DNA of 64,000 bases. Source: Symbiobacterium sp. Lineage in GTDB: Bacteria > Bacillota > Sulfobacillia > UBA995 > UBA9673. The translations under genes were made by a program, and so were the position numbers. Below the pieces are notes generated by a model. That model was given only the letters and a program-made list of their open reading frames with translations, made no database searches and was not told where the DNA came from. Position 1 is the stretch's first letter. Every line of letters begins with the position of its first letter. Of this stretch, positions 28,553 through 45,225 are shown piece by piece. Where the stretch lies: NCBI GenBank assembly GCA_020725405.1, contig DYFB01000039.1, positions 44,428 through 108,427 of the forward strand, written 5' to 3'.

Positions 28553-30256
28553 CTACCGGCGCAGGACCTTCCCGGCCCTGTCGCTGGAGAGCGCCCCCCG
28601 CTCGACGGCCATCACGCCGTTGACGATGACCCACTCGACGCCTACGGGAGCAAGGTACGGCTCCTTTCCCGTCGCGCGGTCGGAGATGGTCTCGGGGTCG
28701 AAGACGACCACATCGGCCCAGCCGCCGCGGGCCAGGAGGCCCCGGTCGGTCAGGCGGAGCTTGCGGGCCGGCAGGGCGGTGAGCTTGTGGACCACACCGG
28801 CGAGGTCGCCCAGACCGCGGCTGCGCCGGTAGTGGCCGAGGACGCGCGGAAAGGTCCCGAAGTGCCGGGGATGGACGGGGGTCCGCTCCCCGAGTTCGCG
28901 GTCAAGGGCGAAGGCGTCGGTTCCGACCATCGTCTCCGGGTGGGAGAGCACCGCGAAGACGTCATCCTCGCTCATGAGTGCGGCCAGGTGGAGCTTCAGG
29001 TCCTGCTCCAGAAGGAGGTCGGCCAACCGGTCGACGAGCCGCCGGCTCCACGCCTCGTCCGGCGGTCCCTTCTTGGTCCCCGGCGGTTCAATCCCCAGGA
29101 CCTCCTCGAAGGCCCGGCCCTCGAGGTCCGCGTCCCGGCCGGCGGTCACAATGAGGTAGTGGTGGGGCGACGCTAGGAACCCGGGAAGCTTCCCGTCGCG
29201 GGCGGCGGCTTTTCGGACCTCGTTCGCGGCCCGCTCGCGGAACTCGGGGTGACCAAGGCTGGCACGGACATCGTCGGGTGCCCCGCGCGGCGTCACCCCC
29301 GGAATCTCCCCGAGGAGCGAGAAGACCTGGGCGAAGGAGTAGGGGTAGACATCGCAGGTTATGTCGATGCCTTCCCGGCGGGCCTCCTCCATCAGGGCCA
29401 AGGTGCGCGCGACCTTTCCGAAGTTCTCGCGGCCGATGGCCTTGTGGTGCGAGACCTCAACGCGGACGCCGGCTTCCCGGCCGATGCGGACGGCCTCCTC
29501 GACCGCCTCGACCACCCCGCCGCTCTCGTCCTTCACGTGCGATGTGTAGAGGCCGTCGTACCGAGCCACCACCCGGGCGAGGGCGACGACCTCCGCGGTC
29601 GACGAACTCGCCCCCGGCATATAGGAGCGTCCGGTGGAGAGGCCGTGGGCCCCTTCTTCCAGGCAGGCTCGGGTCAGAGCCTCCATGGCTTCAATCTCGC
29701 CGGGGGTCGCCGGCCGGCGGTCGAGTCCCACGATATGGGCCCGGATGAGGCTCTGCCCGACGATAGGGTAGAGGTTCACCCCTATGCCGTGCTTGTCGAG
29801 GTAGTCGAGGTACTCTCCGAAGGAGTGCCAGGCCGGCCCCGAGCCGTCGTCAGCGCCGGCGGCGATCTGGGATGGGACCTCCCCGAGGAGGCCCTCGGAG
29901 AGCATCTTGAGGACGGTTTGGGCGACCTCGCCCTTCAGGGGGGCCGGCGACCAGCCGCAGCTCCCGGCGACCTCGGTGGTGATGCCCTGGAGGAGAGAGC
30001 TCCGGGCCCGGGGATGGGAGGGCAGGGAAAGGTCGGAGTGGGAGTGCATGTCGATGAACCCCGGGGCGACGGCGAGGCCCCGAGCGTCGATAACCGTGGC
30101 CGCCTCGGCGCCCTCAAAGGATCCCAGGCCGGCGATACGGCCTCCGGAGATGCCGAGGTCGGCCACGTAGGGGGGGTTACCGGTGCCGTCGACGATCAGC
30201 CCGCCGCGGATGAGCACGTCCAGCAAGTCCGCATCCTCCTCGGGTCGCGGCGCCAC
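28553..30256 (-). CDS. N-acyl-D-amino-acid deacylase (D-aminoacylase, amidohydrolase_3 family)
   Basis: 567 aa. N-terminal GGLIVDGTG...PGFIDMHSHSD metal-binding motif and C-terminal GDRATGKEPY region typical of D-aminoacylases. Confidence 0.85.
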   Translation of the reverse strand: MAPRPEEDADLLDVLIRGGLIVDGTGNPPYVADLGISGGRIAGLGSFEGAEAATVIDARGLAVAPGFIDMHSHSDLSLPSHPRARSSLLQGITTEVAGSCGWSPAPLKGEVAQTVLKMLSEGLLGEVPSQIAAGADDGSGPAWHSFGEYLDYLDKHGIGVNLYPIVGQSLIRAHIVGLDRRPATPGEIEAMEALTRACLEEGAHGLSTGRSYMPGASSSTAEVVALARVVARYDGLYTSHVKDESGGVVEAVEEAVRIGREAGVRVEVSHHKAIGRENFGKVARTLALMEEARREGIDITCDVYPYSFAQVFSLLGEIPGVTPRGAPDDVRASLGHPEFRERAANEVRKAAARDGKLPGFLASPHHYLIVTAGRDADLEGRAFEEVLGIEPPGTKKGPPDEAWSRRLVDRLADLLLEQDLKLHLAALMSEDDVFAVLSHPETMVGTDAFALDRELGERTPVHPRHFGTFPRVLGHYRRSRGLGDLAGVVHKLTALPARKLRLTDRGLLARGGWADVVVFDPETISDRATGKEPYLAPVGVEWVIVNGVMAVERGALSSDRAGKVLRR

Positions 30257-30337
30257 CGGAAGCCCGGGGCGCTGTCATCGTCCGGCGGTCTTCGCTCCCG
30301 GGTGTCGGAAGCCCTGCTGGTGCTCTTACTAAGCGTC

Positions 30338-30360
30338 GCCCGGCGAGGCCCTCGCCGGGC
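30338..30360. promoter_or_regulatory. 23-bp perfect palindrome gcccggcgagg-c-cctcgccgggc in the divergent promoter region
   Basis: Seen directly. Lies between the D-aminoacylase start (30256, minus) and the helicase start (30555, plus). Confidence 0.4.
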
Positions 30361-30554
30361 CGCCCTGTCGCCCTGGCCGTGAGCCCGCCGCGCCAATCCT
30401 GGCGCTCCCGCCCGAGGAGGCCCCGCTGTCTGAGCGGAAACCCACATCTGGGCTTCCATTCCACTTGCCAGGGAACTCTCCCGTTCGTAGCGAAAAGTGT
30501 CAGGAGTTGGCGCTTTGCCCCGGAGCAAGCCCTAATCCACTGGCGAGGGAGCCT

Positions 30555-33500
30555 ATGAGCGCGGTCCCGGCCATACCGGAAATCGACTTCTCGGCCGACC
30601 CCGAGGCCGTCCGCCTCGTGGCCGAGGCGCACCGCCTGAGCTATGGTCACCTGGCGAACCCCGGGTTCGCCGCCGAGGTGTCTCTCATCGACCCCCTGCC
30701 GCACCAGCGAATCGCGGTCTACGACCACATTCTGAACCAGCGGCCGCTTCGCTTCCTCCTGGCCGACGACGCCGGGGCCGGAAAGACTATCATGACCGGC
30801 CTCTACATCCGCGAGATGCTCAGCCGGCGTCTCCTGCGCCGCGTACTGGTAGTCCCGCCCGCCGGACTGGTCAGCAACTGGCGGCGCGAGCTGGCCACGC
30901 TCTTCGGCCTCCGCGCGCGGGTGATCACCGGGGCGGACGCCTCCCGCGCGAGCGGGTCCGGTGACTCGCCGAACCCCTTCCGCGGTCCGGGCTCCGACCT
31001 CGCCATCGTCAGCGTCGACACCCTGGCGGGGCAGAAGGTCTTCTCCCGTCTGGCCGAGCCGGGCGTGGAACCCTACGACCTCGTCGTCTTCGACGAGGCC
31101 CACAAGCTGGCCGCCCGCCAGGACCCGGACGGCCGCATCGTGAAGACCGACCGCTACAGCCTCGCGGAGGCGCTGGCGGGCGTGAAGACTAGCGAGCCCC
31201 GGTTCCGTCTCGATTGGCACGCCCGCAATCTCCTGCTCCTCACGGCCACGCCGCACATGGGCAAGGACTTCCCCTACTACTGCCTCTGGCGGCTCCTCGA
31301 GCCCGAGGCCCTGGCTACCTTCGAGGCCTTCTCGGCCTACCCGCCCGCCGAGCGACGCCATCATTTCCTCCGCCGGACCAAGGAGGAGATGGTGGACTTC
31401 TCCGGACGCCCGCTCTACCCGCCGCGGCACTGTGATACCGTGAGCTACGAGCTCACCCAGGGCGGGGAGAGCGAGCAAGAGCTCTACGACGAGACCACCA
31501 AGTACATCAGCAGTTACTACAACCGGGCGCGCCTCCTCAATCGCACGGCCGTACGCCTGGCCATGAGCGTCTTCCAGCGCCGTCTGGCGAGTTCCACCTA
31601 CGCCCTGATGCGATCGTTCGAGCGCCGCCTGGAGAAGCTCGAAGCCATCATGGACGACCTCAGGTCCGGGCGCCTCACCGCCGACCAACTGCTCATCCGG
31701 CAGCGCCGCCTGGACAGCACCCGTGATCTCCTGGACGAGGCCACGGCGGACGAAGAAGGAGTCGAGCACGGCGAGGAGAGCAGCGAGGCCGCTGAGCGGA
31801 ACCTCCTCGGCGGCGTGGTCGCCGTGAACCTGGCCGAGCTCGAGGTGGAGAAAGCCAAAGTCGCCGAGCTCCTCGACCTCGCCCGCCGCGTAGCGGCCAA
31901 GGGCAGCGGGGCCAAGTTCGAACGCCTCCTGGAGGTCCTGGGCGACGCGCGTTTCGCCGAAGAGAAGTTCCTCATTTTCACAGAGCACCGCGACACGATG
32001 GACTTCATCGCCCGCCGGTTGGAGGCCCTCGGCTATACCGGCCAGGTGGCCCGGATCCACGGCGGTCTCGACGCCGCCGAGCGGGACCGCCAGATCGAGT
32101 TCTTCCGCGCCCCGGCCGGCGCCGGAGGAGCCCGCTTCATGGTCTGCACCGACGCGGCTGGTGAGGGTATTAACCTTCAGTTCTGCTGGCTCATGGTCAA
32201 CTACGACATCCCGTGGAACCCGGCTCGCCTGGAGCAGCGCATGGGCCGCATCCATCGCTACCTTCAGACCCGCGAGGTCCGCATCATCAACCTCGTTGCC
32301 GGGAACACCCGCGAGGGCCGGGTGCTGAAGACTCTGCTCGACAAGCTCCAGCTCATCCGCGAGCGGCTCGGCTCGGACAAGGTCTTCGACGTGGTGGGGC
32401 GGCTCTTCGAGGGCGTCTCGCTCCGAGAGTACATGGAGATGGCCGTCACCGAAGCGGGGGTTGAGGCTGCCGCCAGGTTCATCGAAGGCCGACTCACCCC
32501 CGAGCAGGTCGAGGCCCTCGAGGCCCGTGAGCGCCTCCTCTACGGCGACCGCGGGGACGTCAAACGAGAACTGCCGGCTCTCAAAGACCGGCTCGAGCAG
32601 GAAGGACTGCGGCGGCTCCTTCCGGGCTACGTCCGGCACTTCGTGCTCGGGGCCGCGCCGGTGCTCGACCTCGCCCTCGAGGGCCCGGTGGACGGCCGCT
32701 TCACCTTCCGGCCCCTCCGCCCAGGCGCTCTGGACCCCTTCCTGCCGGCCTCGGAGGCCTACCCTCCCGACTGGCAGACACTCTTCACCATCGAGCGCCC
32801 GGCACGGGAGGAGAAGGTCGTCTTCCTGCGCCCCGGCGAGCCGTTCTTCGAGAGTCTGCGCGAGGCTGTGGCGTCCAGGCTGGAGGGGTCAGCCCTCAGG
32901 GGTGGGGTCTTCACCGACCCCCACGCCACGGGTCCCTACCTCTTCCACCTGGCCCTGGTCAGCGTGGTGCGCCGCCGTGACCCCGCCGATCCGGGCTTCG
33001 CGGAAGAACTTCTCCTGGAGGAGAGAGTCGTCGGCGTGCGCCAGGACGAGAGCGGCAACATGGAGCTGTGCCCCATCGAGCACCTGCTCCTCCTGCGCGG
33101 GGCGCCAGGGGCCTTGCCGGTGGGCCGTCTTGCGGCGGCGCCGCTGGAGTACCGGGAACAGGCCCGCCGATTCGCGATGACCCGGGTGGCGGAGGTCCGG
33201 GCCGAGGACATCCGGGAGAGGCTCCGGCTGGAACTGGCCCGGCGCCGAGAGGCGGTCCGCCAGGGCTACGACTACCGGCTGGCCGAGCTCGGCGAGAGCC
33301 GGGTCAGGCTGCGCAAGGCGGCCTCGGAGGGAGACCGCAGGGCCGCCGGCGAGCTCGAGGCCGTCAAGCGAGAGCAGGAGCGGGTCACGGCCGAGGCGCA
33401 GGCGGCCTCCCGGCGGTTGGAGCGGGAACCCGACCTCGTGGCGCCGGGCGAGGTGCGCTTCCTCGCCCACGCGCTGGTCCTGCCCAGCGCCGACAGCGAG

Positions 33501-33911
33501 GACCAGGCTCATCACGACGCCCGGGTGGAGGCTCTGGCCATGGAGTACGCCCGCCGCTACGAGGAGGACCTCGGCGCCGTGGTGAAGGACGTCTCCACAG
33601 CGGACCGGGCCCGCGAGGCCGGCCTCGGCGACCGGCCCGGCTTCGACCTCCTCTCCCGGCGCCCCGATGGGCAGGAGCTGTGCATCGAGGTCAAGGGCCG
33701 GGCCCACGCCGGTGAGGTCGAGGTGACCCGGAACGAGTGGGCCCAGGCCTGTAACCTGGGTCCGCGGTACTGGCTCTACGTGGTCTACGACTGCGCCACC
33801 CGCCAGCCGAGGTTGCGCCGGATCCAGGACCCCTTCTCCCGGCTCCTGGCCAGGACCAAGGGGAGCGTGCTCATCAGCGAAGCGGAAATAGCCGAAGCGG
33901 CGGAGGGATGA
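30555..33911 (+). CDS. SNF2-family helicase (DEAH box) with a C-terminal DUF3883-like PD-(D/E)xK nuclease-like domain (BrxHII-like; 'HmaA'-like)
   Basis: Start at ATG 30555 (GAGGGAG RBS); the ORF track's TTG at 30465 is less likely. Helicase motifs: I DDAGAGKT, II VVFDEAHKL, VI QRMGRIHRYLQ. C-terminal segment ...DGQELCIEVKG...YWLYVVYDC carries a D..E.K signature. Confidence 0.9.
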   Translation: MSAVPAIPEIDFSADPEAVRLVAEAHRLSYGHLANPGFAAEVSLIDPLPHQRIAVYDHILNQRPLRFLLADDAGAGKTIMTGLYIREMLSRRLLRRVLVVPPAGLVSNWRRELATLFGLRARVITGADASRASGSGDSPNPFRGPGSDLAIVSVDTLAGQKVFSRLAEPGVEPYDLVVFDEAHKLAARQDPDGRIVKTDRYSLAEALAGVKTSEPRFRLDWHARNLLLLTATPHMGKDFPYYCLWRLLEPEALATFEAFSAYPPAERRHHFLRRTKEEMVDFSGRPLYPPRHCDTVSYELTQGGESEQELYDETTKYISSYYNRARLLNRTAVRLAMSVFQRRLASSTYALMRSFERRLEKLEAIMDDLRSGRLTADQLLIRQRRLDSTRDLLDEATADEEGVEHGEESSEAAERNLLGGVVAVNLAELEVEKAKVAELLDLARRVAAKGSGAKFERLLEVLGDARFAEEKFLIFTEHRDTMDFIARRLEALGYTGQVARIHGGLDAAERDRQIEFFRAPAGAGGARFMVCTDAAGEGINLQFCWLMVNYDIPWNPARLEQRMGRIHRYLQTREVRIINLVAGNTREGRVLKTLLDKLQLIRERLGSDKVFDVVGRLFEGVSLREYMEMAVTEAGVEAAARFIEGRLTPEQVEALEARERLLYGDRGDVKRELPALKDRLEQEGLRRLLPGYVRHFVLGAAPVLDLALEGPVDGRFTFRPLRPGALDPFLPASEAYPPDWQTLFTIERPAREEKVVFLRPGEPFFESLREAVASRLEGSALRGGVFTDPHATGPYLFHLALVSVVRRRDPADPGFAEELLLEERVVGVRQDESGNMELCPIEHLLLLRGAPGALPVGRLAAAPLEYREQARRFAMTRVAEVRAEDIRERLRLELARRREAVRQGYDYRLAELGESRVRLRKAASEGDRRAAGELEAVKREQERVTAEAQAASRRLEREPDLVAPGEVRFLAHALVLPSADSEDQAHHDARVEALAMEYARRYEEDLGAVVKDVSTADRAREAGLGDRPGFDLLSRRPDGQELCIEVKGRAHAGEVEVTRNEWAQACNLGPRYWLYVVYDCATRQPRLRRIQDPFSRLLARTKGSVLISEAEIAEAAEG

Positions 33912-33918
33912 ACTCGCG

Positions 33919-36900
33919 GTGGAACCCAGCGGACCGACCGGACGGCGCCTCATCGAGGCGACCTTTCCGCTGAGGCAGGCGTCACTCGACTCCGTGCACG
34001 AGAAGAACGTCCGGCACGGGCATATCTCCACCCTGCACATCTGGCCGGCCCGGCGACCCCTGGCCGCCTGCCGGGCCGCGCTCATCGCCACTCTCCTGCC
34101 GGACCCCGGGACTTCCGAAGAGCGCCGGCGGCTCGCGGAGAGAATCGGCGGGAGGGTTGTCGAGCGTCGCGAGATGAAGAAGGTCGGCTCCCGGGAGGTC
34201 GAGACGGTCCGGGAGGAGACCGAGGGAGGACTCCTCCACTGGGGGCGGGAGAACAGCCCCGACCTCGACTGGTTCCGGGAGGAGATCCGCAAGGCCTACG
34301 GCGGCAGGGCTCCGAAGGTGCTGGACCCCTTCGCCGGTGGAGGGTCCATACCCCTCGAGGCCATGCGCCTCGGCTGCGAGGCCATCGCGATGGACATCAA
34401 CCCGGTGGCGTGGTTCATCCTGAAGTGCACGCTGGACTACCCCCACCGGATGGCCGGTAAGACCCTGCCTCTGCCCAAGGCGGCCCTCGAGTCGGCCGAG
34501 TTCATGGAGGCCTTCCTGCGAGGGACGGGGAGGGTCAAGAAGAAGGCGGACCTTGAGCGGCAGCTCCAAGGGGTGCAGCTCGGCCTCTTCCCGCCTCCCG
34601 AGGCCGACCTCGCTTGGCACGTGCGGGCGTGGGGTCGCTGGGTCTTCCAGCGGGCCAAGGTGGACCTCGAACGCTTCTACCCGGTGGTCGACGGGAAGCC
34701 CACGGTGGCCTACCTGTGGGCGAGGACGGTCAAGTGCAAGAACTGCCGCGGGGAGGTGCCTCTCCTCAAGACCAGGTGGCTCTGCCGTAAGCCGGATAAG
34801 AAGGTGCTCCTCACCCTGCGCACGGAGCCGGGCAAGGCCGAGGCCGACTTCGGCGTCCGGGTTCTCCGGCCTGACGAGGTGGTGAACGACGCCGACACCA
34901 AGGGTACCATGTCCAGGGCCGGGGCGACCTGCCCGCACTGCGGCGTCATCACGATGATGGAGGACCTCCGCCAGGAGGGTCGCGCCGGTCGCCTAGGGCA
35001 GCGGTTGGTGGCCGTGGTGGTCGAGGGGGCCCGTGGAAAGGAGTATCGACCTCCCACCGGTGAGGAGATACGGAGGGCATCGGAGGCTGGGGGCGCGGTC
35101 GCTTCGGCGTTCGACGGAGTACCCTTCGGGACCCCCGACGAACCGCTTCCGGCCAAGGAGGCGCTCGGCATCCGGGTCCCACTCTACGGCTTGGATACCT
35201 GGGGGAAGCTGTTCAACCCTCGCCAGCTGCTCGCCCTGGGAAGCTTCGTCCGCCATACTCGTGCGGCACGGGAGGCGATGCATGCTCACGAGTACTCCCC
35301 AGAGTGGGTCGAAGCGGTGGGGACCCTTCTAACCCTCGTAGTCGATAAACTCGCGGACTATAACGCGAGCCTAACGACATGGAACACGCCTGGGGAAAAG
35401 ATGAGGAACGTCTTTGTCCGGTTCGCCCTGCCCATAACGTGGGATTATGCTGAGCTTAACCCCCTTTCACAGTCTACCGGGAACTACCTAGCCTGCCTAG
35501 AGTGGGTGGCCCGGTCAACGGAGCATACCTCTCTAGCTGCGCTGAGGTGTCCCTTCCCGCAAAGCGTTCTCGGCTCGGCTATCCGCCTACCTGCCGAGCA
35601 GGGGACGGTGGACCTCGTGGTGACCGACCCGCCGTACTACGACGCCATACCCTACTCGGATACGATGGACTTCTTCTACGTCTGGCTACGCCGGAGCACG
35701 CACGGGCTGGCTCCGGACGTCGATGCGGCCTTTTCCGAAGAGCTCGGCCCGAAGTGGGACGGGCCTCGAGAGGAAGGAGAGCTTATCGACGACGATAGTC
35801 GCTTCGGTGGTGACCCCCAAAGGTCCCGGGCCGCCTACGAAGCCGGCATGCTTAAGGCGTTCCAGGAGTGCTACCGAGTCCTCCGCCCCGAGGGGCGGCT
35901 CGTGGTCGTCTTCGCCCAGAAGAACCCTGCGGCGTGGGAAGCCCTCGTTTCGGCCATGCTTCGAGCGGGCTTCGTGGTCACCGCAAGTTGGCCGGTGCAA
36001 ACCGAGAGGGAGACCCGCACTAGAGCACTGTCCGGAGCTGCCCTCTCCTCGTCAGTCTGGCTTGTCTGCCGCAAGCGCCCGCCGAGCGCCCGACCCGGGT
36101 GGGATAACCAGGTCCTCGAAGAGACGCGCGCACGCCTCTGGGGCGTGCGGGCTGACGAGGTCGGCGAGTGGGTGTATCGCCCCACCCTCCGCGAGTTCTG
36201 GGATGCCGGGATTCGCGGCCCCGATTTCGTCTGGGCGGCCACCGGTCCGGCGCTCGAGGCCTACAGCCGCTACCCGGCGGTGAAGAAGGCCGACCGGCCC
36301 GATGAACTCCTGACCGTGAGCGAGTTCCTCCGCCACGTGCGTCGCCTGGTGGTGGATTTCGTCGTCGGCCGCGTGCTCACCCCGGAAGGAGAGCCGTCGG
36401 CCGCGCCCCCGCTAGACGACGTAACGACCTACTACCTCCTTCACCGGCAGGCTTTCCAGTTTTCCGAGACCCCCATCGGCGCGGTCATCCTCTATTCCGT
36501 GTCGTGCGGGCTCTCGGACCGCGACCTCGTGGAGGAGTACGACCTCCTTTCCCGCAGCGGCGGGAGCACCGCGCCCGCCGACCTGGAAGAGGACGGTTCG
36601 GATTCCGGGGAGGACGCCCAAGAAGAGGGAGAGGAAGAGGAAACCGCCGGCGCTTCCGGCGGCACCTCAAAGGTCCGGCTCAGGCCCTGGCACCAACGCC
36701 GGGGCAAGCGCATGGGTTACGAGAACGGCGGCCGGCCGGTGCCGCTGATAGACCAGGTCCATCGGCTGATGCATCTCTGGAAGACCGGCGACGTGCGCGC
36801 GGTCAACCACTACATCGGCGAGCGGGGTCTGCAATCAAGCGGCGTGTTCGCTAGGCTCCTCCAGGCCCTCATCGAGCTCTCGCCCGTCGGAGACGAGGAG

Positions 36901-37023
36901 CGGACGCTCCTGGAGAGCATCAGCAACCACCTGGCCGGGCTCCGGCTGGCTCGCCGGCCCGACCAGCTCTTTGACAGCCAGCAGGCTCCTGAAGAGCCCT
37001 TTCGGGGAGGCGTAAAGTCATGA
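33919..37023 (+). CDS. DUF1156-type DNA methyltransferase (N6-adenine/N4-cytosine class; PglXI-like; 'HmaB'-like)
   Basis: GTG start 8 nt after the helicase stop. N-terminal DUF1156 signature (IEATFPL...HISTLHIWPARRP). Motif I VLDPFAGGGSIPLEA. Cys4 Zn-ribbon insertion (CKNCRG...CPHCG). Motif IV VVTDPPYYD about 440 aa after motif I. Confidence 0.9.
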   Translation: MEPSGPTGRRLIEATFPLRQASLDSVHEKNVRHGHISTLHIWPARRPLAACRAALIATLLPDPGTSEERRRLAERIGGRVVERREMKKVGSREVETVREETEGGLLHWGRENSPDLDWFREEIRKAYGGRAPKVLDPFAGGGSIPLEAMRLGCEAIAMDINPVAWFILKCTLDYPHRMAGKTLPLPKAALESAEFMEAFLRGTGRVKKKADLERQLQGVQLGLFPPPEADLAWHVRAWGRWVFQRAKVDLERFYPVVDGKPTVAYLWARTVKCKNCRGEVPLLKTRWLCRKPDKKVLLTLRTEPGKAEADFGVRVLRPDEVVNDADTKGTMSRAGATCPHCGVITMMEDLRQEGRAGRLGQRLVAVVVEGARGKEYRPPTGEEIRRASEAGGAVASAFDGVPFGTPDEPLPAKEALGIRVPLYGLDTWGKLFNPRQLLALGSFVRHTRAAREAMHAHEYSPEWVEAVGTLLTLVVDKLADYNASLTTWNTPGEKMRNVFVRFALPITWDYAELNPLSQSTGNYLACLEWVARSTEHTSLAALRCPFPQSVLGSAIRLPAEQGTVDLVVTDPPYYDAIPYSDTMDFFYVWLRRSTHGLAPDVDAAFSEELGPKWDGPREEGELIDDDSRFGGDPQRSRAAYEAGMLKAFQECYRVLRPEGRLVVVFAQKNPAAWEALVSAMLRAGFVVTASWPVQTERETRTRALSGAALSSSVWLVCRKRPPSARPGWDNQVLEETRARLWGVRADEVGEWVYRPTLREFWDAGIRGPDFVWAATGPALEAYSRYPAVKKADRPDELLTVSEFLRHVRRLVVDFVVGRVLTPEGEPSAAPPLDDVTTYYLLHRQAFQFSETPIGAVILYSVSCGLSDRDLVEEYDLLSRSGGSTAPADLEEDGSDSGEDAQEEGEEEETAGASGGTSKVRLRPWHQRRGKRMGYENGGRPVPLIDQVHRLMHLWKTGDVRAVNHYIGERGLQSSGVFARLLQALIELSPVGDEERTLLESISNHLAGLRLARRPDQLFDSQQAPEEPFRGGVKS

Positions 37024-40000
37024 TTTCAACCCCGACCTTCACTCCGTGGCACAAGGTGGTGCGGCTCCGCGACGACCTCCGGTCCGGGGAACTTCCCCTG
37101 GCCATCTTCGCCGCCGATCTCTACGCGGTCCGGATGGCGACGGCCCCACCGGTCTACCGGGACCCCCGGGAGTTCTTCTCGCTGACCTACCCGGCCCACA
37201 ACCTCCGCAGGCTGGCCAAGGAGGTCATGGACCGGCTCGCCGGCCGGAGCGAGCGAGCCGTCCGCCAACTCGAGCTCACCTACGGAGGCGGCAAGACCCA
37301 CGCCCTCATCACCCTCTACCACCTCGTGAACGACCCAGAGACGCTTCCGGAGGACCTTCCGGCCGTACGCGAGTTCATCGTGCACGCTGGGCAGCGCCCG
37401 CCCAAGGCCCGCGTGGCCGTGCTGGCCTTCGACAAGCTGGACGTCGAGAAGGGCATGGAGGTGCCCGGCCCCGACGGCCGGAAGCGGTGGCTCCGCCATC
37501 CCTGGAGCGTCCTCGCCTACCAGCTCGCCGGCTCGGAGGGTCTGCGCCTCCTCCACGCCGCGGACCGGGACGAAGAGCGCGAGAGCCCCCCGGCGGAGAA
37601 CCTCCTCACCGAGCTCCTCGCCATCCCCGCCCGCGCAGACCTGGCCACTCTCATCCTCATCGACGAGGTCCTGATGTACGCCCGCGAGAAGGTGGCCCTG
37701 GACCCCACCTGGAGGGCGCGGCTCGTGGACTTCTGCCAGTACCTCACCCAGGCCACCACGGCCGTTCCGCGCTGCGCCATCGTCGCTTCACTCCTGGCCA
37801 CCGACCCGCGCAAGTACGACTCCCTGGGCCGCGAGCTGGCGAAGGACCTCTCCGACATCTTCCGCCGGGAGAAGGAGGAGAGCATCCAGCCCGTCCTCAA
37901 GGAGGACGTGGCCGAGATCCTCCGCCGTCGTTTCTTCACGCCGGAGTCGACCCGCGACCACGAGCTCTTCCGGCCGCACGTCATAGCGGCTCTACAGGGC
38001 ATCCAGGCCCTGGACGAGGCCACCGCTCGTCAGGGCCCTGAGGCCGAGGAGAGGTACCTGGCCAGCTACCCCTTCCATCCAGACCTCACCGACGTCTTCT
38101 ACACCAAGTGGACCAACCTCGAGGGCTTCCAGCGCACCCGGGGTATCCTCCGCACCTTCGCCCTCGCCCTGCGCGAGGCGGAACGCTGGGACACCTCGCC
38201 CCTGGTGGCCGCCAACGTCTTCCTCAGCGAGCCCGGCCGGACCGATCTCTCCCCGGCGGCCCGGGAGCTCACCGGGGTAGCCGCCACCGAGGAGTACGAG
38301 GGTAAGAGGCAGGAGTGGACCGCCATCCTTGAAGGGGAACTGGCCAAGGCACGAGCCATACAGGAAGAGTGCCCGGCCCTTCGTCACCGCGAGGTGGAGC
38401 AGGCCGTCTTCGCGACCTTCCTCCACTCCCAGCCGGCGACCCAGAAGGCCCTCACCCGGGAACTCATGGTTCTGGTCGGAGCCACCTGCCCGGACCGGAT
38501 CGAGCTCGGAAAGGCCCTCCGGCGATGGGCGGAGGTCTCCTGGTTCCTCGACGAGGCCGGCCTCCAAGACGTGGAGAACGGTCCACAGGGAGAGCGATTC
38601 CTGCCCCGAACGTGGCGTCTGGGCTCCCGGCCTAACCTGACCCAGATGCACCACGACGCCTGCGGCCGCGTATCGGCGGAGTTGGTCGAGGCCCGGCTGC
38701 TTGAGGACATCGCCAGGACCAAGGACCTTACGGCCGGTGCCGGTAAGGCCGGGGCCAGGGTTCACACCCTGCCGGAGGCGCCCAACGACATCTCCGACGA
38801 CTGGGAGTTCCACTATGCGGTGCTCGGGCCGAAGGCCGCGTCCGAGCCGGGTAAGCCCAGTGCCGAGGCCGTCCGCTTTCTCACCGAGACCTCCGGCCCG
38901 CAAAAGCCCCGGGTCAACCAGAACGCCGTCGTCCTGGCCGTTCCGGCCCGGGAGGGGCTCGAGATCGCTCGGAGCCGCGTCCGTGACTACCTTGGGTGGG
39001 AGGAAGTGGCCCAGCAGCTCAAGGAGCAGAAGGTCCACGACCCCCTGCGCACGGCGGCCCTGAACGCCCACCTCGATGCAAGCCGCAAGGCCATCCCGGC
39101 CGCCGTCCAGCAGGCCTACTGCATCGTCGTCACCATCGGACGAGACGGCGGACCCGAGGCCTTCAGAGTCACCGTCGGCGACCGGCCGCTGTTCGAGGTT
39201 ATCAAGGCCGACGAGCGCTCGCGCATCCGCGAGTCGGCTGTGGCGGCCGGCGCCCTCCTACCCGGCGGCCCGTACGACCTGTGGGAGGAAGGCGAGACCT
39301 CGCGCCGGATGCGGGACCTCGTCGGGTCCTTCGCCCAGTTTCCACGCCTGCCGAAGATGCTCAACTCCCAGGCCATCCTGGACACCCTCCTGGCTGGCTG
39401 TCAGAGCGGCCTCTTCGTGATGCGGCTGACCCGGCCCGACCGCTCGGTCCGCACCTTCTGGCGGGAGAGGCCGGACGATGTGGCCGTGAAGGATCCGAGC
39501 CTCGAGGTGGTTCTGCCCCAGGGGGCCGCTCTAACGGAGCTGGCCCCGTCTCTTCTCGAGCCCGGCGCTCTGCCGGGACTGTGGCCGCAAGAGGGGAGGT
39601 TCAGGGTGGGCGACCTTTACGCCTACTTCGCCGGCGGCCACTCCGTGGCCGTTTCGCGCGGGACGTACGAGGAGACCGTCGTCATCCCCGCGGCCCCGCG
39701 GGAGGTCGTGGACGTGGCCGTGCGCGCCGCGGTAAGGGAGGCCAAGGTGTGGCTCCTCGCCGCCGGCGGGGCGGCCAGCGTCTGCGAGGAGGACATCCCG
39801 CCGGGGCTGCTCACCGAGAACGCCATCCTCCAGGGGCCGCCGGAGCCTCTGTCGCCCACGTCCATCCTGCCGGACGCCCTGCCGGCGGCCTGGCCGGGGC
39901 CACCGCCCGGCTCGGTCGAACGCCTTACCAGCGCCCTGGCCATCCTAGACGCCGCCTCGGCCAGAGCCGGGCTGACCCTGCCTTGGGCGGTGGTCCGCCG

Positions 40001-40346
40001 GGCCATCGACGGGGCCCTTCGGACCCGGCTCCTCGAGCTGGCCGACGGCTCGGGCCCTTGGCCGTGCGAGCTAACGGCGGCGAAGGACGTCAGGCTGAGG
40101 GAGAGGAAGGCTGGCGGCGGCCCCGTGCCACCTGAATGGCCCAAAGTGGCCCAGGCTGACCTCGAACCGAACGAGCTCCAGGAGCTGGCGGACCAGACCG
40201 CCACCCTCCTCAAGGTCGCGGGCCGCGAGAAGGTCAAGTACCACGTCCGCATCGAGCTCTCCGAGACCGATGCGGAGACCCTCGAACAAGTCGCGAACGT
40301 GCTCCTTGCCGTGAGCCCGCGCTTGCGGCTGAAAGAGAGTGGTTAG
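37020..40346 (+). CDS. DUF499-like P-loop ATPase (BrxC/PglY-like; 'HmaC'-like)
   Basis: ATGA overlap with the methylase stop. N-terminal TPWHKVVRLRDDL...FAADLYAV...FFSLTYPAHNLRRL...LELTYGGGKTHALITLYHL (Walker-A-like GGGKTH). 1108 aa, with size and architecture like BrxC. Confidence 0.85.
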   Translation: MISTPTFTPWHKVVRLRDDLRSGELPLAIFAADLYAVRMATAPPVYRDPREFFSLTYPAHNLRRLAKEVMDRLAGRSERAVRQLELTYGGGKTHALITLYHLVNDPETLPEDLPAVREFIVHAGQRPPKARVAVLAFDKLDVEKGMEVPGPDGRKRWLRHPWSVLAYQLAGSEGLRLLHAADRDEERESPPAENLLTELLAIPARADLATLILIDEVLMYAREKVALDPTWRARLVDFCQYLTQATTAVPRCAIVASLLATDPRKYDSLGRELAKDLSDIFRREKEESIQPVLKEDVAEILRRRFFTPESTRDHELFRPHVIAALQGIQALDEATARQGPEAEERYLASYPFHPDLTDVFYTKWTNLEGFQRTRGILRTFALALREAERWDTSPLVAANVFLSEPGRTDLSPAARELTGVAATEEYEGKRQEWTAILEGELAKARAIQEECPALRHREVEQAVFATFLHSQPATQKALTRELMVLVGATCPDRIELGKALRRWAEVSWFLDEAGLQDVENGPQGERFLPRTWRLGSRPNLTQMHHDACGRVSAELVEARLLEDIARTKDLTAGAGKAGARVHTLPEAPNDISDDWEFHYAVLGPKAASEPGKPSAEAVRFLTETSGPQKPRVNQNAVVLAVPAREGLEIARSRVRDYLGWEEVAQQLKEQKVHDPLRTAALNAHLDASRKAIPAAVQQAYCIVVTIGRDGGPEAFRVTVGDRPLFEVIKADERSRIRESAVAAGALLPGGPYDLWEEGETSRRMRDLVGSFAQFPRLPKMLNSQAILDTLLAGCQSGLFVMRLTRPDRSVRTFWRERPDDVAVKDPSLEVVLPQGAALTELAPSLLEPGALPGLWPQEGRFRVGDLYAYFAGGHSVAVSRGTYEETVVIPAAPREVVDVAVRAAVREAKVWLLAAGGAASVCEEDIPPGLLTENAILQGPPEPLSPTSILPDALPAAWPGPPPGSVERLTSALAILDAASARAGLTLPWAVVRRAIDGALRTRLLELADGSGPWPCELTAAKDVRLRERKAGGGPVPPEWPKVAQADLEPNELQELADQTATLLKVAGREKVKYHVRIELSETDAETLEQVANVLLAVSPRLRLKESG

Positions 40347-40572
40347 GAGAGCGTCCGACGCCCGCACGGCTCCGAGCAGCCTTACCGGGGCCCAGGACCT
40401 CGTCCCCCTCGGTCACCGCCCAGGTGCGGCGCCGGGGGTCGAGAAAGACCTGGGCTCCCTCCAGTTTGCGCCAGACGCCCGACGGCTGGAACCAGTAGAT
40501 GCGGTTGCGCCGGTCATCCTCGAGGACCGTCACCAGCTCGCCGCGGAGCTCCGGACCGGATGGTCCGGCCAT
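40234..40572 (-). CDS. Possible small ORF (112 aa) downstream of bshC, antisense-overlapping the 3' end of the DUF499 gene
   Basis: ATG 40572 preceded by GGGAGGTGG at -6. The first ~60 aa (MAGPSGPELRGELVTVLEDDRRNRIYWFQPSGVWRKLEGAQVFLDPRRRTW...) look protein-like; the rest is low complexity. No family recognised. Confidence 0.25.
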   Translation of the reverse strand: MAGPSGPELRGELVTVLEDDRRNRIYWFQPSGVWRKLEGAQVFLDPRRRTWAVTEGDEVLGPGKAARSRAGVGRSPNHSLSAASAGSRQGARSRLVRGSPHRSRRARCGRGT

Positions 40573-40658
40573 TCCCGCCACCTCCCTTCCCCCGCCCCCG
40601 GAAGGGCTGTCACACGCTTCCAGGCTATGCCGGGAACGGAAGGGAGGTTAACATAACG

Positions 40659-42344
40659 CTACAGCCAGACCAGGCGGTGCCCCGGGTCGACGGCCGCCCC
40701 CGGGGGGACTAGCGGCAGTCCCGCCAGGGCGTCGGCGAGGCCGGGACCGTACTTGACAAGATAGGGGAAGATGTTGAACACCCGCTCCTGGTAGTCGCCC
40801 CGCGGCCGGAGGGAGGCACCCACGACGTCGAAGCGGCCAAGGGTCTCCCGGCTCTTCCGGCGGTGCTCCTGCCAGACCTTCTTTCTGAGCCACTCCGCCT
40901 CGGCCAGAACCTTCCCGCGGTTCTTTGCGGCAAGCTCCTTGAGCGAGGTTTCCACGCCGGCCACCACGCCGGTGAGGGTCTCGTACTCGTCCGCGATCAA
41001 CCGGGCCAGGCGGTCGAAAGCCTTGTCGATGCCCACAGGGTCGGCCCGGTCGAGCCAGCTCGCCCGCGCCGCCTGCAGGGCCTCCGGGTCGAGAGCGGAC
41101 GCGGGATCGAGACCGAGCCGGTCGAGGTGCCGCGCGACCGACGGCTCGATGATGGTGACCCCGGGGCGCGGGTAGACAATCGGCATCCGGCGGCCGAGCC
41201 GGTGGTAGACCTCGCGGTAAAGGCCGAAATAGCTCGTCTCGCCCGGGCCTCCGACGTAGGCCAGGACCGGAAGGAGCATGTCCTGGCCGACCGGCCGCAG
41301 GACCACGTTGGGACTCAGCCGCTCCGGGCTCGCGGCGACCATCTCCAGAAGGTCCCGCCGGGTCAGGGTCTCCGCCCGGTCCTGGCCGTGTCCCGGACCG
41401 AGCTCGAAGACGTCGGCCGACAGCCGGCGGAGCGGGACCCGCTCCATCCCCCGATAGACGTAGAGGTTGGCCGACTGCGGGTCCTTGTCCACCTGGGGCT
41501 CGAAACCGAGGTCCCGCACCCGCCTCTGGCCGAGGGCGAAGGCCTCGGCGAGGGCCTCGTTCTCCTCGACCATCCGGCGGAAGGCCGGCCTCTGGAGAGC
41601 CCGGAGACCCGGGTCGAGAGGGTTGGCCACGAGGAGGCCGCGGTCCCCGAAGAGAGCAAAGAGGAGCCGTCCGAACCACTCGCCGAGGTCGGTCGACGCG
41701 GCCGCGGTCTCGCGGAGAAGACCGACGACCCCGGCGGTGAACTCCGTGGACCACAGCGACGTCTCGACCTCCGCCAGGAAGGCCTCGACGGCCGGGCCGG
41801 TCGGGAGGCTGCCGACCGACGTCCGGGGAGCGAACCCGCCGCCGGGGTCGTAGGCGTGGCGGACGATGTCGCCTCGAGGAGTAAGAACGTGCACCTGGGA
41901 TATCTCGGCAAGGTCGTGGTCTTCCGCGCCGACCCAGAAGACCGGGACGACCTTGGTCCCGGCCGGGAGGAGTTGCCGGACCTCCCCGGCGAGCTCGATG
42001 ACGACGGCGGCCTTCCAGAAGGTGTAGAGGGGCCCGGTCAGGACCCCGGGCTGCTGGCCGCCGATGACGACGACGGACCCGGGGTCGGCCAGGTCCTCCG
42101 CCGCGGCCAGGACCGGGGCCGGGGCCCCGAGCGACCGGGCGTAGGCCGCCAGAACGGCCGCGAGGGCCTCGCGGTCGCCCTCAAACCGCTGTCTCAGCTC
42201 CTCGAGGCGGTGGCCGTACGAAGCCGGGTCGTGGGGTGAATGGTCGTAGAGATGAGCGACAGTGTCAAAGCAGTGCAGGTAGGCCGCCCACAGCGGGTAG
42301 CGGGGGTCGGACGTCGGCGTCGTCGATACGCGGTATCCGGTCAT
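40659..42344 (-). CDS. bshC: Bacillithiol biosynthesis cysteine-adding enzyme BshC (YllA family)
   Basis: 561 aa, with a GGQQ motif and overall YllA/BshC-like length and composition. Recalled family resemblance, not a computed match. Confidence 0.7.
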   Translation of the reverse strand: MTGYRVSTTPTSDPRYPLWAAYLHCFDTVAHLYDHSPHDPASYGHRLEELRQRFEGDREALAAVLAAYARSLGAPAPVLAAAEDLADPGSVVVIGGQQPGVLTGPLYTFWKAAVVIELAGEVRQLLPAGTKVVPVFWVGAEDHDLAEISQVHVLTPRGDIVRHAYDPGGGFAPRTSVGSLPTGPAVEAFLAEVETSLWSTEFTAGVVGLLRETAAASTDLGEWFGRLLFALFGDRGLLVANPLDPGLRALQRPAFRRMVEENEALAEAFALGQRRVRDLGFEPQVDKDPQSANLYVYRGMERVPLRRLSADVFELGPGHGQDRAETLTRRDLLEMVAASPERLSPNVVLRPVGQDMLLPVLAYVGGPGETSYFGLYREVYHRLGRRMPIVYPRPGVTIIEPSVARHLDRLGLDPASALDPEALQAARASWLDRADPVGIDKAFDRLARLIADEYETLTGVVAGVETSLKELAAKNRGKVLAEAEWLRKKVWQEHRRKSRETLGRFDVVGASLRPRGDYQERVFNIFPYLVKYGPGLADALAGLPLVPPGAAVDPGHRLVWL

Positions 42345-42459
42345 TGCGGCCGGTGGCCGACCCTCCCGTCAGCAGGCGATGGCCCTAGTTTCTCGTCGAG
42401 AAAGCCGCGGACCTCCCCGGGCCGAACGACCTCACGGGTACGGCCCGGACCGGAGCCCG

Positions 42460-43539
42460 TCAGATGTCGTTGGGGTGGATCTTTCCCCCCTCCTCCCCAT
42501 TCGGGAAGACCTTGAGAATGCCCGGCTGGAGGCCGGCGACCCGGCTCAGGGTCGAGTCGTCGAGCGGGCTCAGGACGGTAGCGGTTCGACGGCGGAAATC
42601 GACAGCCCTCAGGATGCCGACCCCGAGAAGCTGGCCGCTCCGGTCAATGAGTCCAGTAAGGAGGTTCTCGAACTTGTCGACCTTGGTCAGGAAGACCTCT
42701 TCGACTCTCTCCCGCTCCTTGATGCGCTGAAGCCCGTCGAGCTCGAAGTAGCCGTCGGCCACGATGAAAATGCCGTCGGCGAGCCACTCGGCGTGAGCGA
42801 TGCGGCAGCGCAGGTCGGTCGCGAGGAGGGCCGTCTCGCTCTCGTCCATCGGCCGCCCGGTGAGGTACGTGCTGCGGAACAGGGCGGTCCGGCTGAGGTC
42901 GAACTCGTGCAGGGCGGCCCCGGCGAAGTACTGGCGGTAAGCCTTCTCGCGGGCCGCCCGCCGGTCGCGACGGCTCTTCTCCGTGGCCCGCGGCGAGACC
43001 GGGAGACGCCTCACCTGCACGATTGGACTCCCCAGGACCTCCCAGGGCCGGAGAAGATGCTCCAGCTCGATATCCCGCTGGAGGGCCAGGACATGGGTCG
43101 GCTCGATGAGCTCTATCTTCGCGTTCTTGAGGAATCGAGCCGTCCGCCCCCAGACGAGCCCGGTGGTATCGATGATCACGACGTCGGGCTCGGACGACAA
43201 GGCCCGGTCCACAGCGGACTTGGCCGCCGCGGCGGTGGTGAAGCTGAGAAGCTCGGGCGAGTTCGACCCGACGAAGTAGCCGTGGGCCAGGGGAATGTCC
43301 CGGAGGCGCTCGATGGGTCCCTGGGCGAAACCGCAGCCGACGGACCCCGGGGGACCGATCTCCGATTGCCCCACGTCGGCGTCGACCACCGCAGCCTTGA
43401 GGCCGGCGCTGACGGCGACGTTGGTCAGGAAGGCCGCCAGGGTGGTCTTGCCCGTGTCCGTCGCTCCGAGAAGGAACAGCTTCAAGGGACGCGCCCCCGA
43501 GGCGAAGATGTCCTCGGCGGCTCTCTTCCACTCTCTCAT
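42460..43539 (-). CDS. Clp1/Grc3/Nol9-family P-loop polynucleotide 5'-hydroxyl kinase-like protein
   Basis: Walker A LLGATDTGKTT, the Clp1-characteristic DADVGQSEIGPPG segment (compare eukaryotic DLDPGQ), and Walker-B-like VVIIDTTGLVWG (compare Clp1 INTCGWVKG). Confidence 0.65.
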   Translation of the reverse strand: MREWKRAAEDIFASGARPLKLFLLGATDTGKTTLAAFLTNVAVSAGLKAAVVDADVGQSEIGPPGSVGCGFAQGPIERLRDIPLAHGYFVGSNSPELLSFTTAAAAKSAVDRALSSEPDVVIIDTTGLVWGRTARFLKNAKIELIEPTHVLALQRDIELEHLLRPWEVLGSPIVQVRRLPVSPRATEKSRRDRRAAREKAYRQYFAGAALHEFDLSRTALFRSTYLTGRPMDESETALLATDLRCRIAHAEWLADGIFIVADGYFELDGLQRIKERERVEEVFLTKVDKFENLLTGLIDRSGQLLGVGILRAVDFRRRTATVLSPLDDSTLSRVAGLQPGILKVFPNGEEGGKIHPNDI

Positions 43540-43595
43540 GCTTGAAAGGACCTCCCCCGGCGGGACCGCGGGCCTGACCGGCCCAGAGGTCCCGT

Positions 43596-44202: not shown

Positions 44203-45225
44203 TCAGTCCTCCCCGCCCTCGCCGCCCCGTGAGCCGCCCCTGTAAAGGAAGCGGTCGAGGGTCCGGTGGTAAGTGAACGGCGACCCCGCGTCACGGTCGC
44301 TCTCAGAACGGAAGTGCTCCTGGATGGTGTCGACCTTGGCCGTGAGGTCGTCCACGCAGTGGAGGATCATGGCTTCGAGAGTCTTGGGTCGCTTCGGGGA
44401 CCCCCACTCGTACTGGCCATGGTGGCTCAGGACCATGTGCCTCAGCTCGAGGAGCGTTTCGGCGGGGAAGCCGGGCAAGCGGCCGGCCCGCTCGGTGACC
44501 ATCTCCGCACCGAGGACGATGTGGCCGACGAGGCGCCCCTCCACGGTATAGTCGAACTGCCGGGTCCAGGAGAGCTCCTTGGTCTTGCCGACATCGTGGA
44601 GCAGGGCCCCGGTGACAAGAAGGTCGGTGTCCAATCTGGGAGCGGCCTTGTCCCCCGGAAGGGACCGGTAGCGCCCGGCGACGTCGAGGCAGATCTCGGC
44701 CACGGCCAGCGTGTGCTCGAGCAGACCCCCAAGGGTGGCGTGGTGAATCGTCTTGGCCGCCGGGGCCCGCCGGAAGAGGGCCCAAAACTCCGGGTCGGTG
44801 AAGAAGCTTTCATTCAGGGCCCTGAGGTGCGGGCACGCAATCGCGGCGATAAGGTTTCTCAGCCGCTGCTCCATCTGTTCGGGGTCCTGGATGCTGGTCG
44901 GCTGGAAGTCGGCCAGGTTCACCTGCTCTTCCGGCACGGCCTCAAGGTCGGTGACGTTTATCTGCCGCTGGCCGTTGTAGAGGCTCACCTTGCCCACGAC
45001 CCGGACGAACCCGCCCACGGTCACAGCCGCCTGGAGGACTTCGGCGTTGTCCCAGACGCGGGCCTGGACACACCCGCTGGCGTCGCAGAGCTCCAGAGCC
45101 AGGAACGGCCCTTTCGACGAGCCGACCCGCCGGAGGTCCTTCGAGCAGACGAGATAGACCTCGTCTACGGTCTGGTTCTCCCGGAGGTCGCGAACGAAGG
45201 CCCTTGTCTTCTGGAACAGGGCCAT
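44203..45225 (-). CDS. yhaM: 3'-5' exoribonuclease YhaM (OB-fold + HD domain)
   Basis: N-terminal OB fold (FLALELCDASG...VRVVGKV) and HD phosphohydrolase domain (HTLAVAE...LHDVGK). Confidence 0.85.
   Translation of the reverse strand: MALFQKTRAFVRDLRENQTVDEVYLVCSKDLRRVGSSKGPFLALELCDASGCVQARVWDNAEVLQAAVTVGGFVRVVGKVSLYNGQRQINVTDLEAVPEEQVNLADFQPTSIQDPEQMEQRLRNLIAAIACPHLRALNESFFTDPEFWALFRRAPAAKTIHHATLGGLLEHTLAVAEICLDVAGRYRSLPGDKAAPRLDTDLLVTGALLHDVGKTKELSWTRQFDYTVEGRLVGHIVLGAEMVTERAGRLPGFPAETLLELRHMVLSHHGQYEWGSPKRPKTLEAMILHCVDDLTAKVDTIQEHFRSESDRDAGSPFTYHRTLDRFLYRGGSRGGEGGED

Follow-up and report, generated by a model that had tools for sequence, protein, structure and literature searches.

A predicted C-terminal PD-(D/E)xK nuclease domain of the Snf2-type helicase HmaA in a compact Hma anti-phage locus of Symbiobacterium sp.

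A contig of Symbiobacterium sp. (DYFB01000039.1) exhibits a module of three genes which is an Hma anti-phage system (hmaA, hmaB, hmaC), also designated "Type-1 BREX-related" (Type-1 BR). The helicase of this system, HmaA, ends in a NOV_C domain. Judged from its sequence, its modelled fold and a characterised homologue, this C-terminal tail is most probably a catalytically competent, Hjc-like, metal-dependent DNA nuclease of the PD-(D/E)xK superfamily, working by the mechanism proposed below. All positions refer to the window, the whole stretch of DNA that we analysed (64,000 nucleotides).

The nuclease tail of HmaA is already known: its prediction dates from 2013, its experimental test from 2024 and its classification from 2026. 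Steczkiewicz et al. (2012; PMC3424549) placed DUF3883, the former name of NOV_C, in the PD-(D/E)XK superfamily and remarked that it occurs fused to helicases. Anantharaman et al. (2013; PMC3710099) described the fusion as a novel restriction-endonuclease domain in an operon similar to those of restriction-modification (R-M) systems. The trio was named Hma by Payne et al. (2021; PMC8565338), who reported 1638 loci in 26 phyla with PADLOC. Liu et al. (2024; PMC11232893) showed that the HmaA of Halomonas meridiana SCSIO 43005 alone protects Escherichia coli from phage T4. A paper of 2026 in NAR (PMC12839542) gave the family the new name "DUF499-centred BREX-related systems" and suggested that it works in an R-M-like manner. 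In our literature search, we found neither HmaB nor HmaC put to the test, nor any later mechanistic work on them. Given that the NOV_C tail is the standard published effector of Hma, the locus in the window is an ordinary new copy of the system.

The hma genes and their surroundings

The peptide GFDLLSRRPDGQELCIEVKGRAHAGEVEVTRNEWAQACNLGPRYWLYVVYDC is found in a plus-strand ORF ending at position 33911. The most upstream start codon of this ORF is a TTG at 30465; the ATG at 30555 has a GAGGGAG sequence 5 nt upstream. This ATG is likely the true start of hmaA, giving a protein of 1118 aa. A JGI metagenome contig with 99% identity, which shares the left flank, carries an hmaA gene call that is also 1118 aa long. 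Residue numbers of HmaA are counted from this ATG throughout, in agreement with those of the first-pass annotation of this DNA. An antisense ORF (32889..34292) lying over the tail of hmaA is without support and of the usual spurious type in DNA of 70% GC; the GC content of the window is about that high, and long spurious ORFs therefore occur in all frames.

Table 1. Positions of the hma genes and of the domains and putative catalytic residues of HmaA in the window
Feature	Position	Strand	Basis
hmaA, SNF2/RapA-like helicase with predicted C-terminal NOV_C nuclease, 1118 aa	30555..33911	+	PADLOC, Pfam
Snf2-type ATPase core, aa ~49-605	30699..32369	+	Intact motifs read in translation
Post-helicase region, aa ~689-977	32619..33485	+	Secondary structure of full-length AF2 model
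Predicted NOV_C / DUF3883 PD-(D/E)xK nuclease domain, aa ~981-1118	33495..33908	+	Pfam, AF2
E992 codon, helix alpha1	33528..33530	+	Alignments of homologues
D1031 codon (GFDLL), start of strand beta2	33645..33647	+	Alignments, AF2
E1045-V-K1047 codons (IEVKGR), strand beta3 (E1045, 33687-33689; K1047, 33693-33695)	33687..33695	+	
E1061 codon (NEW motif), start of helix alpha2	33735..33737	+	Alignments, AF2
hmaB, DUF1156 N6-adenine-type DNA methyltransferase, 1034 aa	33919..37023	+	PADLOC, Pfam
hmaC, DUF499 AAA+/STAND-like ATPase, 1108 aa	37020..40346	+	PADLOC, Pfam

The best PADLOC models of three consecutive co-directional genes are HmaA, HmaB and HmaC (Table 1). The HmaA profile (PDLC00659) matches with an E-value of 3.1e-152 (507 bits), aligning aa 41-1110 with profile positions 69-1133 of 1176, so that the alignment spans the whole protein, tail included. 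Pfam matches in HmaA are SNF2-rel_dom, ResIII, Helicase_C and NOV_C. HmaB (PADLOC E-value = 3e-113, 377 bits; Pfam DUF1156 and N6_N4_Mtase) retains methyltransferase motifs I (FAGGGS) and IV (DPPY) intact in its translation, and its gene starts 7 nt past the hmaA stop codon. HmaC (PADLOC E-value = 2e-76, 256 bits; Pfam DUF499) keeps both of its Walker motifs intact (A, GGGKTH; B, LILIDE), and the hmaC ATG overlaps the hmaB stop codon (ATGA) by 4 nt. None of HmaA, HmaB and HmaC scores above the cut-off of an NCBIfam model. Two ORFs at the downstream end of hmaC, 40339..40656 (+) and 40234..40572 (-), were considered as a fourth, DUF3780-like gene; neither has a match.

HmaA carries the feature by which Type-1 BR systems are defined, an extra and, by its sequence and model, putatively active C-terminal restriction endonuclease (REase) on a Swi2/Snf2 helicase. 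This feature is found in 79% of 2446 taxa (PMC12839542). The N-terminal TUDOR domain of Type-1 BR helicases is absent: motif Q comes after no more than about 48 residues, with motif I at aa 74, and this segment (aa 1-48) forms two short helices and no beta-barrel in the full-length AF2 model. Among 120 close homologues, the N-terminal lead is shorter than 90 aa in about 17 and 150-179 aa long in 77, the latter being the class with an XRE-type HTH. The HmaA of the window has neither an N-terminal TUDOR nor an HTH domain.

Other assignments were examined and rejected. For Type-2 BR, there is no Pfam match to PLD/HKD, the operon has no space for a DUF3780 gene, and the NCBIfam scores (bits vs cut-off) are 139 vs 1100 for phospholipD_antiphage, 174 vs 1000 for DUF1156_antiphage and 87 vs 1200 for DUF499_antiphage. 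The DISARM helicase DrmD matches only the helicase core (321 bits vs a cut-off of 610, NCBIfam), and no DrmA, DrmB or DrmC is found in the window. PglZ, BrxL, BrxA/B/C and Drm genes are all lacking from the 30 other ORFs of at least 300 aa across the window (PADLOC), as is any iSTAND component, and Pfam likewise finds none of the BREX components in the 10 nearest ORFs; because no PglZ is present among these scanned ORFs, the module is neither Type-3 BR nor classical BREX.

The hma genes are flanked by housekeeping genes (Pfam), an amidohydrolase and AcrB on the left and BshC on the right. No integrase or transposase is found among the large ORFs scanned (Pfam, 10 nearest; PADLOC, all 30). The GC content of hmaA, hmaB and hmaC (about 0.69) equals that of the flanks, and there is therefore no compositional sign of recent transfer. 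A scan of 30100-40800 for promoters and terminators gave nothing above chance. The housekeeping flanks, together with the absence of BREX and Drm genes from the scanned ORFs, indicate a lone compact Hma system outside a defence island.

The compactness of the locus is rare among its relatives. A same-strand hmaB lies downstream of hmaA in 71 of 80 relatives' loci, and in eight of the nine loci without it the DNA available downstream is shorter than 2 kb; hmaC follows hmaB in 41 loci. In relatives, hmaA and hmaB lie a median of about 2 kb apart, and more than 1 kb apart in most loci (56/71). The hma genes therefore usually have other genes embedded between them, in agreement with Payne et al. 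No genes are embedded inside the hma operon of the window, and the same compactness is reached by just two of the 41 complete loci.

The NOV_C domain of HmaA

The motifs of the Snf2 ATPase are all intact in HmaA: Q (PHQ), I (GAGKT), II (DEAH), III (TATP) and VI (QRMGRIHR). In the full-length AF2 model (pLDDT 78, pTM 0.73), aa 49-605 form the Snf2 ATPase with helical insertions, followed by helices (aa ~608-703) and a small alpha+beta unit (aa ~706-782). The next segment (aa ~784-977) is a beta-sheet domain broken by a long two-helix coiled-coil insert, the helices of which comprise 62 (863-924) and 34 residues (928-961), with four strands before the insert and one after. The nuclease domain occupies aa 981-1118 of the model. 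Pfam finds no match in the post-helicase region (aa ~689-977), the modelled layout of which fits the "inactive REase + alpha+beta domain with coiled-coil insert" that PMC12839542 describes for BrxHII, RapA and BR helicases.

The tail itself matches Pfam NOV_C (PF13020, formerly DUF3883) with 66.1 bits against a cut-off of 22.1 (E-value = 3.1e-18), covering profile positions 1-89 of 91. The match extends over aa 991-1088, which is aa 1021-1118 when counted from the TTG. Since the profile of a curated family matches here, the D...ExK arrangement in the tail is not a chance pattern. A separate AF2 model of the last 166 aa, built with 32 homologues (pLDDT 87.7, pTM 0.80), exhibits the elements alpha1, beta1, beta2, beta3, a short strand, alpha2, beta4 and beta5 in this order, and the full-length model agrees. 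This is the alpha-beta-beta-beta-alpha-beta core of the PD-(D/E)xK superfamily. A Foldseek search with the tail model returns Hje, I-Ssp6803I and VRR-NUC at probabilities from 0.99 to 1.0. The nearest folds are the junction-resolving enzymes Hjc, Hje and RecU, with 13-19% sequence identity. A search with the tail profile against PDB sequences gave no match even at E<=10, and the link to Hjc comes from fold comparison only.

In the model, the predicted active site consists of E992 in alpha1, D1031 in beta2, E1045-x-K1047 in beta3 and E1061 in alpha2. Many PD-(D/E)xK enzymes have their first acidic residue in alpha1, at the position of E992. Biochemical data are available for the homologous domain of the Halomonas HmaA: its purified 142-aa tail nicks supercoiled pUC19 in the presence of Mn2+ and linearises it slowly, while linear lambda DNA is not cut by the isolated tail (PMC11232893). 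Mutation of the catalytic residues abolishes both nicking and defence; the D1084/E1104/K1106/E1121 quadruple mutant has lost its defence against T4, and defence also needs helicase motif VI (R610) (PMC11232893). By analogy with this homologue, we predict that cleavage by the tail of the window HmaA is metal-dependent.

The first-pass annotation, made from the sequence alone, had proposed a DUF3883-type PD-(D/E)xK domain at the C-terminus of an SNF2 helicase, and this reading is borne out by Pfam NOV_C, PADLOC HmaA and the AF2/Foldseek results. It had also suggested structure prediction and residue conservation as checks. The modelled core and its best matches among PD-(D/E)xK nucleases agree with the proposal, as does the conservation of D, E and K described below. 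The residues that it had picked out, the D of FDLL and the E-V-K of IEVKG, are the near-invariant D1031, E1045 and K1047, to which E1061 is to be added. Its suggestion of a candidate effector nuclease gains weight from the Halomonas tail, a Mn2+-dependent nickase needed for phage defence (PMC11232893). The region that it had assigned to the domain (33560-33911) ends correctly at 33911; its start is one base off, the codon frame running from 33561, and too late for the domain, as helix alpha1 begins at about nt 33495, some 65 nt upstream.

Conservation of the putative catalytic residues

The five putative catalytic residues (E992, D1031, E1045, K1047 and E1061) are invariant in the 32 close homologues and in 44 full-length homologues. 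An exhaustive HMMER search yielded 149 cluster representatives at 50% identity; among them, D1031 is kept in 142/144, E1045 in 138/145, K1047 in 138/145 and E1061 in 133/138 (95-99% for these four positions), and E992 in 110/115. In genome loci from Chloroflexota, Acidobacteriota, Planctomycetota, Proteobacteria, Bacillota and others, each of D1031, E1045, K1047 and E1061 is present in all 79 sequences, and E992 in 79 of 80. The tail motif series GFD...EVK...NEW is kept in 119 of 120 full-length homologues.

The family is large. At least 7966 homologues of HmaA are found at E<1e-20, of which the best 120 all carry PF13020; the best match among genome representatives is 62% identical. Relatives in the plasmid collection are at most 37% identical, and two of the 124 records cover 80% or more of the query. 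Both of these end at aa 1014, short of the D/ExK residues. The Hma family is thus not traced to plasmids in this collection.

Possible mechanism and alternative readings

In the mechanism that we propose, the ATP-driven Snf2/RapA-like motor would engage invading double-stranded DNA. ATP binding or translocation would then license the nuclease, tethered behind the long coiled-coil arm, to nick the DNA, and repeated or paired nicks would break it and block phage replication. Double-strand breaks would need two HmaA molecules. HmaC, which is BrxC-like, may act in sensing or licensing. N6-methylation by HmaB may mark and spare self DNA in an R-M-like gating of the nuclease; we infer this part with somewhat less than even confidence. 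The gating is uncertain because the Halomonas HmaA alone is protective and non-toxic in E. coli: hmaA expressed without hmaB gives about 100-fold protection, against T4 only, and causes no toxicity (PMC11232893). These observations, together with the uncut linear lambda DNA, are explained no less well by a mode that is sensor-gated and independent of methylation.

HmaA might accordingly be a self-contained sensor-effector comparable to Hna or Nhi, a reading that we consider possible but rather doubtful. Its motor would recognise a phage structure or protein, for instance branched replication or recombination intermediates, and its Hjc-like domain would nick the target, with dormancy or an abortive-infection-like state as the outcome; methylation would play no role, and HmaB and HmaC would form a separate or regulatory layer. 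Besides the T4-specific, non-toxic protection by hmaA alone, this reading is favoured by the failure of protection at MOI 10 with cells that stay intact and grow slowly, which Liu et al. regarded as non-canonical Abi (PMC11232893), and by the closest folds of the tail being the junction resolvers Hjc, Hje and RecU. However, likeness to the Hjc fold does not show junction specificity, hmaB and hmaC almost always follow hmaA on the same strand, HmaB keeps its catalytic motifs, and two comparative-genomics studies take the trio as R-M-like (PMC3710099, PMC12839542). The two ideas may also be combined: NOV_C would be a structure-specific nickase acting on branched or remodelled DNA produced by its own Snf2 motor, gated by HmaB methylation and by HmaC. 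We regard this combination as unlikely. Cleavage of this kind, on DNA that the protein's own motor has branched or remodelled, is a feature of eukaryotic SNF2-nuclease fusions, for example ZRANB3.

Two further readings would change the identity of the tail or of the whole module. Within this helicase family, BrxHII and RapA do contain an internal REase-like domain that is inactive (PMC12839542) and for which a sensor role has been proposed. The NOV_C tail could by the same token be a degenerate, non-catalytic PD-(D/E)xK fold, acting solely as a sensor that binds DNA or nucleotides. Such a role is very improbable for a domain whose catalytic positions are near-invariant across hundreds of homologues, and whose Halomonas homologue nicks DNA and loses both nicking and defence upon mutation (PMC11232893). 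It is even harder to believe that the module is a classical BREX, composed of a BrxHII helicase and a PglX-like methylase, which has gained a restriction arm. The second-best PADLOC model for the helicase is indeed BrxH (BrxHI|BrxHII; 318 bits, on the helicase core), the PglXI model weakly matches the hmaB product, and PMC12839542 links the DUF499 systems to Type-3 BREX by shared homologues of the ATPase, the methylase and the helicase. Yet much larger scores are obtained with the models of HmaA (507 bits), HmaB (377 bits) and HmaC (256 bits), PglZ, BrxL, BrxA and BrxB are all missing from the scanned ORFs, the ATPase is of the DUF499 and not the BrxC/DUF6079 type, and a fused nuclease is ancestral and usual in this type of system (79% of taxa), not a local gain. 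The BREX framing of the module in the first-pass annotation has to give way to Hma on these grounds. A nuclease tail driven by the Snf2 motor, as in the mechanism proposed above, remains our preferred reading.

Significance

For annotation, the three genes are to be labelled hmaA, hmaB and hmaC (Hma / Type-1 BREX-related), and the tail of HmaA is better described as a predicted active PD-(D/E)xK nuclease than as a domain of unknown function. The questions of self-protection by HmaB, of sensing by HmaC and of how a nickase stops a phage concern the whole field and bear on the mechanism of BREX. A minimal locus such as this one, with no TUDOR, HTH or HEPN domain and no embedded genes, would be a convenient construct for work on methylase gating. 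If the structure-specific nickase gated by HmaB and HmaC were true, the locus would offer a stripped-down model for the discrimination of self and foreign DNA by BREX-type systems.

Comparison with known systems

Helicases and nucleases are also fused in other defence proteins, such as Hna, Nhi, DdmD and ZorD (with an Mrr-like nuclease), which are of other helicase subfamilies and other nuclease families and have no dedicated methylase or DUF499 partner. The structural neighbours of the tail also differ from it in context: Hjc, Hje and RecU are stand-alone homodimers of about 120-170 aa acting in recombination, whereas NOV_C is a fused tail sharing little sequence with them.

Restriction enzymes of Type I (HsdR) and Type ISP resemble Hma in combining an ATP-driven double-stranded DNA translocase and a PD-(D/E)xK nuclease with a neighbouring adenine methylase. 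In those enzymes, however, the nuclease lies at the N-terminal side of the motor, which is of the HsdR type, while in HmaA it is C-terminal to a Snf2/RapA-like one. Type ISP further holds the methylase and a target-recognition domain in the same chain, in contrast to the separate methylase and the third, AAA+ ATPase component of Hma. An assignment to either type is therefore rejected; of the likeness that the first-pass annotation had drawn, the broad logic stands, and the end of the protein bearing the nuclease, the motor family and the methylase as a separate gene do not agree. The same annotation had cited BrxHII as a helicase-nuclease fusion, which is incorrect insofar as the REase-like domain of BrxHII is degenerate and inactive (PMC12839542). 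Like E. coli RapA, BrxHII of Type-3 BREX has no active nuclease, whereas the HmaA of the window is predicted to be active. PglZ and BrxC, alongside which BrxHII works, are both absent from the scanned ORFs of the window.

The closest characterised counterpart is the Halomonas system. Both HmaA proteins consist of a Snf2 helicase and a C-terminal NOV_C (PF13020) with the D...ExK...E arrangement and an AF2 model resembling Hjc, and both belong to an hmaABC system. Based on shared profiles and the order of motifs, D1031 pairs with D1084 of the Halomonas protein, E1045 with E1104, K1047 with K1106 and E1061 with E1121. The spacing from D to E is 14 in the window HmaA and 20 in the Halomonas one; the beta2-beta3 loop, 6 residues shorter in the window HmaA, also varies in length among the 32 close homologues. 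The window protein is the shorter one (1118 aa vs about 1183 aa), and the position of motif I (aa 74-78 vs T136 in Halomonas) indicates that it lacks some 60 aa that form an N-terminal domain there. In the Halomonas locus, Septu and further genes are interspersed among the hma genes, in contrast to the compact locus of the window.

As a class, Type-1 BR systems differ from the window locus by the TUDOR domain on the helicase, the HEPN domain on the ATPase (1370 of 2446 taxa) and the embedded genes; the HmaC of the window has no N-terminal HEPN domain. They share with it the same central set of components, a DUF499 ATPase, a DUF1156 N6-methylase and a Swi2/Snf2 helicase with a C-terminal PD-(D/E)xK REase.

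Organization of related hma loci

The presence of embedded genes between hmaA and hmaB is the rule among the 80 genome loci carrying hmaA relatives (L001-L080). Where hmaB lies downstream of hmaA (71 loci), the gap between the two genes has a median of about 2 kb and a maximum of 9.5 kb, exceeding 1 kb in 56 of the 71. An arrangement as compact as that of the window is observed in only two of the 41 loci possessing all three hma genes. In a further locus, L082, hmaB is broken into two genes, of 276 aa and 638 aa, that flank a small antisense ORF, and hmaC is only 704 aa long. The L082 Hma system is probably a decaying copy.

Features of the relative's locus and of the window
Feature	Location	Strand	Remarks
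hma locus of a relative (GCA_041890195.1)	L082 9286..14530		hmaA 73% identical
Two-helix arm, hmaA aa 863-961	window 33141..33437		full-length AF2 model
Candidate ORF, 112 aa	window 40234..40572	-	ATG with strong Shine-Dalgarno
Candidate ORF, 388 aa	window 42379..43545	+	adjoins bshC
OB-fold (tRNA_anti-codon) and HD domain protein	window 44203..45225	-	domain matches

ORFs near the hma genes

The 112-aa ORF is convergent to hmaC and shares about 113 nt with its 3' end. A strong Shine-Dalgarno sequence, AAGGGAGGTG, is located about 7 nt 5' of the ATG. The initial 60 or so residues look globular, followed by a tail rich in R, S and A, and no match was found in Pfam, PADLOC or NCBIfam. This ORF may be a genuine small gene or else a high-GC artefact. 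Pfam, PADLOC and NCBIfam likewise gave no match for the 388-aa ORF. It overlaps an antisense ORF of 359 aa, so either strand may be the coding one. The OB-fold and HD domain protein exhibits weak matches to Cas3-HD in PADLOC; it appears to be an ordinary YhaM-type HD nuclease and not a defence gene.

Architecture of HmaA

In the AF2 model, a long antiparallel two-helix arm (62 and 34 residues) immediately precedes the nuclease of HmaA on the N-terminal side. Judging from this model, the arm could set the distance from the motor to the cutting site.

At the other end of the protein, we compared the N-terminal lead, the stretch ahead of helicase motif I, across the best 120 HmaA homologues (P0121-P0240) of at least 7966 at E<1e-20. 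Lead lengths sort into classes. In 77 of the 120 the lead is about 150-179 aa long, the class bearing an XRE-type HTH (PF01381/PF13560), and in two there is an extension of about 430-450 aa that matches PF08852. The lead is short, at 50-90 aa, in about 17, the class to which the window HmaA belongs (30555..30700). According to the published description of the Type-1 class, a TUDOR domain is expected at the helicase N-terminus (PMC12839542). In contrast to those published systems, the window HmaA is devoid of an N-terminal TUDOR domain.
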